The notes under the pieces were generated by a model. That model was not told the origin of the DNA. It ran no database searches and saw nothing but the letters and a program-made list of their open reading frames with translations. Shown in pieces: positions 46,758-47,220 of a stretch of DNA of 64,000 nt. Every line of letters begins with the position of its first letter. The first letter of the stretch is position 1. Made by a program: the position numbers and the translations under genes. Location: NCBI RefSeq assembly GCF_053078305.1, contig NZ_CP166879.1. One strand, given 5' to 3'.

Positions 46758-46951
46758 ATGTAGTATCCTGTTGATTTGAAACATACTACATATACGCGCG
46801 ATCCTACCTTCACTGTATAAAAAGTCAATAAAATGATCATTTTATGATCGTTTTCACCACCTAACTCTTCGTTTCTTTAAGTAAATAATCACCGCCCTGA
46901 ATCATTGTTGATGACTTTTAAATCTATTTGTTGTATCAATTAAACAAATCG

Positions 46952-46976
46952 AATCGATCGTTTTTGTCGATCGATT
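46952..46976. promoter_or_regulatory. GATC-containing inverted repeat upstream of com (candidate Dam-sensitive regulatory site)
   Basis: AATCGATCG-TTTTTGT-CGATCGATT with 9-bp perfect arms, each holding a GATC (46956-46959 and 46969-46972). It lies 44 bp upstream of the com ATG. Confidence 0.4.
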
Positions 46977-47019
46977 GCATGAGAAAGGCATCAACAACAA
47001 AGCAGGAGGTTATGCGGCC

Positions 47020-47220
47020 ATGTATCGAAACATACGGTGCCGACACTGCAATAAGCTACTGGCACGGGCCAGTTTCAGTTATCTGGAAGTAAAATGTCCG
47101 CGCTGTAAAACCCTCAATCAAATCACATCTCCGAGCGCCACAGAGCACCCCACATACACAAGGAAATCCTGTCGTGGGGAACAGAAAGCAAGTCACATCC
47201 CGTATCATCAGCACGCCTGA
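47020..47220 (+). CDS. com: Com-like zinc-finger translational activator
   Basis: ORF-track 46975-47220. ATG at 47020 is 10 nt after [41 protein letters not shown]...EHPT parallels Mu Com (IRCKNCNKLLFKADSFDHIEIRCPRCKRHIIM...EHPT). Confidence 0.82.

Follow-up and report, generated by a model that had tools for sequence, protein, structure and literature searches.

A candidate OxyR operator with a palindromic GATC pair upstream of com-mom in an Sp18-like Mu-family prophage

The com-mom locus and its palindromic GATC pair

The window analysed here is a stretch of 64,000 nucleotides from contig NZ_CP166879.1 (assembly GCF_053078305.1). It carries a Mu-family prophage of the Sp18-like type, whose protein matches to Mu keep the Mu gene order from Ner, B and Gam via head and tail genes to Gin (about 9.9-43.7 kb). 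The genes com and mom are placed beyond gin, adjoining the right end of the prophage, and the DNA upstream of them is the subject of this report. The mom region of Mu combines three GATCs, to which OxyR (MomR) binds in their unmethylated state, with the activator C and with Com. Nearly all work on Dam/OxyR control of mom concerns Mu itself, and a literature search found no analysis of the com-mom control region in Sp18-type phages. We describe a palindromic pair of GATCs upstream of com which, judged by its sequence, qualifies very well as a candidate site of Dam/OxyR control of com-mom.

Gene com (47020-47220, + strand) codes for 66 amino acids matching Pfam Zn_ribbon_Com (E = 2e-12). With its Shine-Dalgarno sequence AGGAGG (47004-09) it covers 47004-47220, and its coding sequence is annotated identically by the Prokaryotic Genome Annotation Pipeline (PGAP) in identical genomes. 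Gene mom (47174-47911, + strand, 245 amino acids; Pfam Mom, E = 8.5e-77) codes for a protein 76% identical to Mu Mom. The two genes overlap as had been claimed, the GTG start of mom at 47174 lying within com, between its ATG at 47020 and its stop at 47220. In the predicted fold, an RNA hairpin CCCCAC...GUGGGG (47148-47179, + strand) sequesters the mom GUG, and Mu folds an equivalent hairpin, CCCAC...GUGGG. The role of Com in mom translation is established in Mu, and the hairpin at 47148-47179 is a candidate Com-dependent translation initiation region of mom.

Upstream of com, GATCs start at 46800, 46835, 46846, 46956 and 46969. The original prediction had placed all five correctly, together with the direct repeat ATGATC-N5-ATGATC at 46833-46849 and the perfect inverted repeat AATCGATCG-N7-CGATCGATT at 46952-46976, which contains the GATCs at 46956-59 and 46969-72. 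Its appeal to GATC density holds in part. The 406-bp intergenic stretch has six GATCs against 2.0 expected from dinucleotide shuffles (P = 0.006), and five GATCs in 173 bp correspond to a pointwise Poisson P = 5e-4, the window as a whole containing 235 (3.67 per kb). At window scale density was rejected as evidence: with random placement, an equally dense cluster somewhere in the 64 kb has P = 0.49, and one other spot, 5575-5800 within the wzc coding region, also reaches five GATCs per 220 bp. Close pairs are frequent in the window, and the sole other pair spaced by 13 bp is found at 61100-61116, within cheW. The wzc cluster and the cheW pair are coding, look like chance and calibrate the density argument. 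Because such clusters and close pairs arise by chance in 64 kb, density and pairing are weak evidence alone. The palindromic GATC pair is clearly the non-random part of the cluster.

The palindromic pair has the frame ATCG-N7-CGAT of the canonical OxyR dimer half-site, with its GATCs 13 bp apart from start to start. The core ATCGTTTTTGTCGAT (46957-46971), a candidate promoter-proximal OxyR dimer half-site, agrees with 7/10 positions of the consensus ATAGnTnnnAnCTAT. This consensus, as well as the data on the GATCs of P22 gtr, comes from PMC2909390. In Mu, the window, agn43 and gtr, the 15 bases that begin with the A of the first GATC and end with the T of the second correspond to ATAGnTnnnAnCTAT, except that changes at positions 3 and 13 create the GATCs. 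The gtr pairs occupy -110/-97 and -46/-33, and OxyR binding is abolished there by methylation (PMC2909390). Compared as 25-mers, the window repeat is identical at 21/25 positions to agn43 GATC II/III, at 19/25 to Mu GATC II/III and at 17/25 to each P22 gtr pair. GATC II/III of Mu read AATCGATCGgtaatacAGATCGATT and the window equivalent AATCGATCGtttttgtCGATCGATT, both with 13-bp spacing. The original prediction had seen here a geometry distinct from Mu, made of two pairs, but the 13-bp spacing is the same as in Mu II/III, agn43 II/III and both gtr pairs. Since spacing and flanks are those of Mu GATC II/III, the palindromic pair appears to be the orthologue of the Mu sites and not a new arrangement.

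A second OxyR-like half-site, ATCAATTAAACAAAT (46935-46949, 6/10), lies 22 bp upstream of the first, and both together form a 37-bp site of the tetramer type (46935-46971) that matches the 37-bp OxyR consensus at 13/20 positions. When this tetramer consensus was scored out of 20 on both strands of the whole window, six positions reached at least 13/20, four of them within 46904-46971. The best score in the 64 kb, 14/20, belongs to an additional OxyR-like 37-bp site without GATC at 46904-46940, overlapping 46935-46971; the agn43 operator has the same score and the Mu site has 13. Among related loci, the score of the 46904-46940 site is 14 for strain M18 and for L041, and 12 for both L004 and L006, and the register -22 gives 13/20 in Mu, the window, M18, L004, L006 and L054. 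In dinucleotide shuffles of 46880-46990 a best score of 14 was reached in 0.2% (P = 0.002). The four positions of at least 13/20 present in this interval were never seen in shuffles (fewer than 1 in 3000). On these likenesses we assign 46935-46971 as the putative orthologue of the Mu OxyR site.

Conservation and position of the putative operator

The comparison covered 100 loci encoding Mom relatives; com was located in 89 of them, with 57 distinct upstream regions. The motif GATC-N9-GATC occurs in 38 of these 57 regions in 16 different sequence versions, so that the GATCs stay at their 13-bp spacing around nine variable bases. The GATC arrangements upstream of com are 18+13 (the Mu type), 19+13, 31+13, 13 alone (the window type, also in L054), 18 alone, and none, the last in marine and other non-enteric relatives. 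Among 16 distinct close relatives, 46906-46976 is nearly invariant and the next 13 nt (46977-89) are variable; the inverted repeat differs in one of the 16, at 46973, and is otherwise invariant. In L004 and L006 everything upstream of about 46910 is replaced, with the operator block and com kept. This pattern points to the 13-bp GATC pair as the conserved core of com-mom Dam/OxyR control in enterobacterial Mu-like phages, among which the third GATC and the operator position relative to the promoter seem free to change.

The gene behind com is exchangeable. Some sister prophages (L002, 6778-7830; L007, 3038-4090) have, in place of mom, a gene whose product is a C5 cytosine DNA methyltransferase (Pfam PF00145); it is joined in frame a few codons past the same GTG GGG AAC start, and operator, com and start-codon hairpin are retained. 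Because the same upstream region and com precede either gene, they suggest a portable regulatory cassette that would drive mom or the C5 methyltransferase. A different DNA-modification gene after com is also a trait of FluMu, Pnme1 and B3, and adenine methyltransferases behind com have been described in Mu-like prophages (PMC3299994). Unlike in those phages, the replacement in the sister prophages is a C5 cytosine methyltransferase that keeps operator, com and hairpin.

Two further conserved repeats were observed upstream of com in other relatives. In the non-enteric loci L014, L015, L017 and L102, an inverted repeat with a tail, approximately CCACAGTG-N7-CACTGTGAACCA...CCAAGGC, is conserved about 60-110 nt upstream of com; upstream of com, GATCs are missing from L015, L017 and L102, and L014 has an 18-bp-spaced GATC pair beyond the repeat, further upstream. 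In L054, L055 and L056, the interval from the GATC pair to the Shine-Dalgarno sequence of com contains the inverted repeat TGCCAC-N5/6-GTGGCA (TGCCG...CGGCA in L056), directly 3' of a good -10 (TATACT or TATAGT); this repeat may serve as operator or form a hairpin in the leader.

The putative operator of the window lies closer to com than its Mu counterpart: from the last GATC to the com ATG there are 51 nt here versus 78 nt in Mu, a shift of 27 bp. The Mu interval after the operator holds the C site (TTAT-N6-ATAA) and the promoter, and oligonucleotides covering it are given in PMC4461284. Because of the shift, there would be no room for a Mu-type C site and promoter downstream of the operator. 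At the level of sequence, the true difference from Mu is the missing GATC I together with this operator shift, on which the original prediction had not remarked.

Three candidate promoters for com, all on the + strand, are inferred from the sequence. P-up (46884-46925) brings together AATAATCACCGCC (46884-96), which is C-box-like, a run of T and, at 46920-25, AAATCT as -10-like hexamer, for which most relatives have CAATCT. This candidate resembles Mu momP1 (AATAATCACCGCC ... GATGACTTTTAAATCT vs AATAACCAC ... GATGTTTTTTAAGAT); a dot-plot of the two has 5 matching diagonals vs 0.5 in shuffles, with the order of modules permuted relative to Mu. The distance from its box to the -10 is 32-33 nt, compared with 33 nt in the lys and I promoters of this phage and 25-26 nt in Mu. 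P-mid (46911-46939) combines ATGACT (46911-16), a 17-nt spacer and TATCAA (46934-39), with a position weight matrix (PWM) score of 6.3; in L006 its first hexamer is ATGACA and the PWM score 7.7. ATGAC and TATCAA are kept in L004 and L006 even with the sequence further upstream replaced. P-down (46964-46994) combines TTGTCG (46964-69), a 19-nt spacer and CATCAA (46989-94; TATCAT in M18 and L041). A -10-like hexamer 31-42 nt before the com ATG is present family-wide (Mu TAAGAT at -34, L058 TATAAT at -37, L054/L055 TATACT at -42/-41). The P-down hexamer of the window is weak, and the patch 46977-89 is variable. In a separate observation, the sequence TTTAAA-17-TAAA(T/A)T in L004 (about 2451-2480) and at the equivalent place in L006 makes a strong sigma-70-like promoter directed toward com (score 11-12); its distance from com is about 145-152 nt, it lies about 50 nt upstream of the conserved operator, and its spacer contains a GATC.

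P-down would set the GATCs near -46/-33, like gtr GATC3/4. With P-mid or P-up (start near 46932-46946), the operator would occupy about +4 to +45, an agn43-like position. In every case the putative operator would touch the core promoter or the initial transcribed region, and therefore OxyR would repress by occlusion, not from upstream.

Activation may come from the phage. A Mor/C-family late activator gene (19442-19867, + strand; Pfam Mor, E = 2.8e-32) codes for a protein 39% identical to Mu C; it is the single member of this family in the prophage, where Mu has Mor plus C, and its product is the presumed positive regulator of late promoters, possibly of the com promoter too. A 17-nt box, ATYCCGCAAARCCYGCC (19869-19885 and 27794-27810, + strand), is exactly the same in the lys and I promoters and starts 33 nt before a TAYGCT -10. 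A search of the window for this box matched lys and I only, with none for the P or com promoters; two further matches with 3 mismatches each fall on the minus strand, elsewhere than com.

Comparison with known systems places the locus nearest to Mu mom. Both have com-mom at the phage's right end, a GUG-sequestering hairpin and a Mor/C-family activator, and the pair corresponding to GATC II/III has the same 13-bp spacing and flanks (AATCGATCG...GATCGATT) and the same OxyR register, scoring 13/20. Mu has three GATCs spaced by 18 and 13 bp, whereas here the position of GATC I is without GATC and the 13-bp pair stands alone. Moreover, a shared ATCAATTAAA motif is displaced here by a 9-bp insertion, a momP1-like segment lies upstream of the operator, and there is an extra GATC-free OxyR-like site. 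The agn43 (flu) operator of E. coli has a very similar core, TATCGATCGTTTATATCGATCGATA vs AATCGATCGTTTTTGTCGATCGATT in the window (21/25), and likewise a second half-site 22 bp upstream. Should P-up or P-mid be the promoter, the position of the operator just downstream of the start is shared as well. However, agn43 has three GATCs (spacing 19 and 13 bp), the first at the annotated RNA start, against two in the window operator, and it is a chromosomal phase-variable adhesin gene without phage activator; phase variation of com-mom is hypothetical. With P22 gtr the locus shares a 13-bp GATC pair inside a single OxyR dimer half-site, possible overlapping alternative OxyR positions and, if P-down is right, a pair near -46/-33 overlapping the -35, as with gtr GATC3/4. 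In contrast to the single 13-bp pair and 22-bp half-site spacing here, the GATC pairs of gtr number two, 64 bp from each other, and its half-sites are spaced by 32 bp. The full gtr layout, two 13-bp pairs in half-sites flanking a third, is absent, the 11-bp pair (46835 and 46846) lying 121 bp away and off consensus.

The three upstream GATCs probably do not belong to com-mom control and are part of a neighbouring leftward unit or chance. A promoter scan found a leftward promoter-like element at 46800-46849 (minus strand) with -35 TTGACT (46828-23), a 16-nt spacer and -10 TAGGAT (46806-01), which overlaps GATC 46800; GATCs 46835 and 46846 lie in an AT-rich tract just upstream of this -35. All three are confined to the sub-lineage of the window. 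M18 has lost GATC 46846 and keeps TTGACT-16-TACGAT(C) with a different spacer, and L004 and L006, with the same com and operator, lack the whole stretch. In the original prediction the 11-bp pair was one of the two pairs of the suggested control. It agrees with the OxyR consensus at 4/10 positions by hand count, the nearest registers stay below 13/20 in the window scan, and the pair is reduced to one site in M18 and to none in L004 and L006; as an OxyR half-site it was rejected. We would assign all three GATCs to the control region of the divergent leftward accessory gene.

Proposed control of com-mom and alternative explanations

We consider it likely that the com-mom operon of this Sp18-like Mu-family prophage has its OxyR operator at 46935-46976. 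The evidence in hand consists of sequence anatomy, homology, conservation and consensus statistics, from which we infer OxyR binding, methylation sensitivity, the promoter position and activator dependence. Of the original prediction, the idea of a Dam/OxyR switch finds support for the palindromic pair, whereas its view of two pairs in a distinct geometry finds none; the other three GATCs are probably unrelated. The proposed switch is a rearranged variant of the known one, an expected relative of the textbook system placed nearer to the gene than in Mu.

According to this proposal, the two GATCs, 13 bp apart, would sit in both arms of the promoter-proximal OxyR dimer half-site (ATCG-N7-CGAT). 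Once they are methylated by host Dam, OxyR would be unable to bind and the operon would be transcribable late in lytic growth, most likely aided by the single Mor/C-type activator of the phage. With the GATCs unmethylated or hemimethylated, OxyR would bind and block transcription. Repression would be by direct occlusion, the operator lying either on the -35 and spacer (about -46/-33, like gtr OxyR(C)) or just past the start as in agn43. Com would then open the hairpin that hides the GUG at 47174, so that mom could be translated.

Several points weigh against this interpretation. The half-site has G at position 10 where the consensus has A (7/10), and the OxyR consensus itself is AT-rich and of low information. 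The operator contains only two GATCs, compared with three in Mu and agn43, and the number of GATCs reportedly matters for the drop in OxyR affinity (PMC2909390). None of the com promoter candidates has a ATYCCGCAAARCCYGCC box within 3 mismatches, and three candidates remain. In the single-molecule real-time (SMRT) methylome of the 95NR1 lysogen, which has a 98.8%-identical copy, 99.9% of GATCs are methylated genome-wide, with exceptions unlisted; 28/42270 GATC positions were not detected as methylated, their positions likewise unlisted (PMC6602927). In CP021339.1 both GATCs of the putative operator begin at about 4903037 and 4903050. As this is a genome-wide figure only, persistent GATC protection in lysogens is neither supported nor ruled out by it.

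The same elements could also serve an epigenetic ON/OFF switch like those of gtr and agn43, with OxyR alternating between the methylation-blind site 46904-46940 and the methylation-sensitive site 46935-46971. Instead of a late-gene safety catch, the outcome would be heritable phase variation, in lysogens, of com-mom or of com and the C5 methyltransferase. Two overlapping high-scoring OxyR-like sites with GATCs in one only are formally like gtr OxyR(AB)/(BC), the gene carried is, as in phasevarions, one for DNA modification, and the strong sigma-70-like promoter of L004 and L006 (score 11-12) lies upstream of the operator. Such a switch seems unlikely to us all the same, since Mom, as established for Mu, is toxic when made outside late lytic growth. 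The spacing of half-sites is 22 bp and not the 32 bp of gtr, the GATCs are found in one of the alternative sites where gtr has a pair in each of two outer half-sites, and the lysogen methylome, with 99.9% of GATCs methylated (PMC6602927), also counts against it. In the same measure improbable is that the OxyR/Dam module has moved onto or just past the core promoter and been paired with the GATC-free site 46904-46940, making a prophage modification gene phase-variable.

It is a little less probable still that the repeat is the operator of a phage protein (the Mor/C-type activator, the repressor or Ner), with GATCs conserved as part of its dyad. Perfect dyads are typical of phage operators and, if CATCAA at 46989 is the -10, the repeat sits where the activator box of lys and I sits, 33 nt before the -10. 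However, the late-promoter box ATYCCGCAAARCCYGCC, confined to lys and I, has no relation to the repeat. Conservation of the GATC pair extends over phages with only 38-70% identity in Com, and the pair is almost identical to the operator of agn43, a chromosomal site that no phage protein controls. Slightly lower again we place the view that nothing is regulated here, that the GATCs are a chance cluster and that the repeat arises incidentally from two self-complementary CGATCG motifs and is at most a hairpin acting as a 5'-leader stem or as a terminator-like structure for leftward read-through. It agrees with the unremarkable cluster statistics at window scale (P = 0.49), with a terminator scan that flags the inverted repeat on the minus strand and with an RNA hairpin of -11.4 kcal/mol. 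Against shuffles, however, this hairpin does not stand out (z = -1.8 for the + strand, -2.2 for the - strand), homologues retain both GATCs at their spacing yet often lack the extended stem, and the consensus enrichment over local shuffles is significant. Rfam at permissive thresholds matched nothing relevant in 45800-48100, and the sequences of relatives have no consistent covariation in the variable patch 46977-89; on the grounds of hairpin, Rfam and covariation, RNA explanations of the repeat were rejected. The lowest credence goes to control by Dam without OxyR, which we hold very improbable for com-mom: methylation would alter promoter strength directly or through SeqA, as at IS10 pIN, and tie it to replication fork passage. 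GATC pairs 11-13 bp apart are good SeqA targets, but the matches to the 37-bp OxyR consensus and the identity with agn43 would be left unexplained. For GATC 46800, in the leftward -10, such an effect would be the most likely role, given that this GATC overlaps TAGGAT(C) and that M18 keeps TACGAT(C); against this, the leftward promoter is a consensus match only.

The com upstream region of the window is shared by 232 of 5426 complete E. coli genomes (about 4%), many of them O157, O26 and O111 Shiga toxin-producing E. coli, and in some the element would drive a cytosine methyltransferase. If OxyR acts here, whether by direct occlusion or by heritable switching, restriction evasion and host methylomes would be affected in the carrier strains. 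One 100-bp fragment with two GATCs and three promoter candidates offers a concrete and cheap test bed.

The prophage context and the leftward region

The Sp18-type Mu-like prophage was already known to encode Mom and Com homologues (PMC3299994). Its right end in the window lies at about 48039, as found by comparing the window sequence by eye with the insertion boundary annotated in L002. Unlike in Mu, where a 95-bp gap takes its position, a 3.3-kb accessory block and a divergent gene lie between gin and com. On the + strand the block (43829-46404) codes for a 685-amino-acid SASA (sialate O-acetylesterase-like)/DUF6645 protein, a DUF1378 protein and a DUF826 protein.

Divergent from com, a small open reading frame (ORF) with a CPAC...CPAC zinc ribbon and a good Shine-Dalgarno sequence runs from 46613 to 46443 on the minus strand; in L004, L005 and L006 its slot is taken by unrelated genes of 86, 175 or 100 amino acids. 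A leftward ORF of 154 amino acids (46905 to 46441), marked "frameshifted" by PGAP, is doubtful: 95NR1 alone has it intact, owing to two 1-nt indels, and it crosses a hairpin and a region where relatives have indels that are not multiples of three. Pfam and PHROGs gave nothing informative on the small leftward ORFs.

A candidate small RNA of about 75 nt was observed within 46644-46757 (+ strand), with a promoter-like TTTACA-18-TAGGAT, a conserved GAAGTAAAGCATTGATGC and a terminator hairpin. It is antisense to the leftward 5' region and has no match in Rfam. The stem of its terminator varies among strains with compensatory changes, and the whole unit is duplicated in FWSEC0008 (L113).

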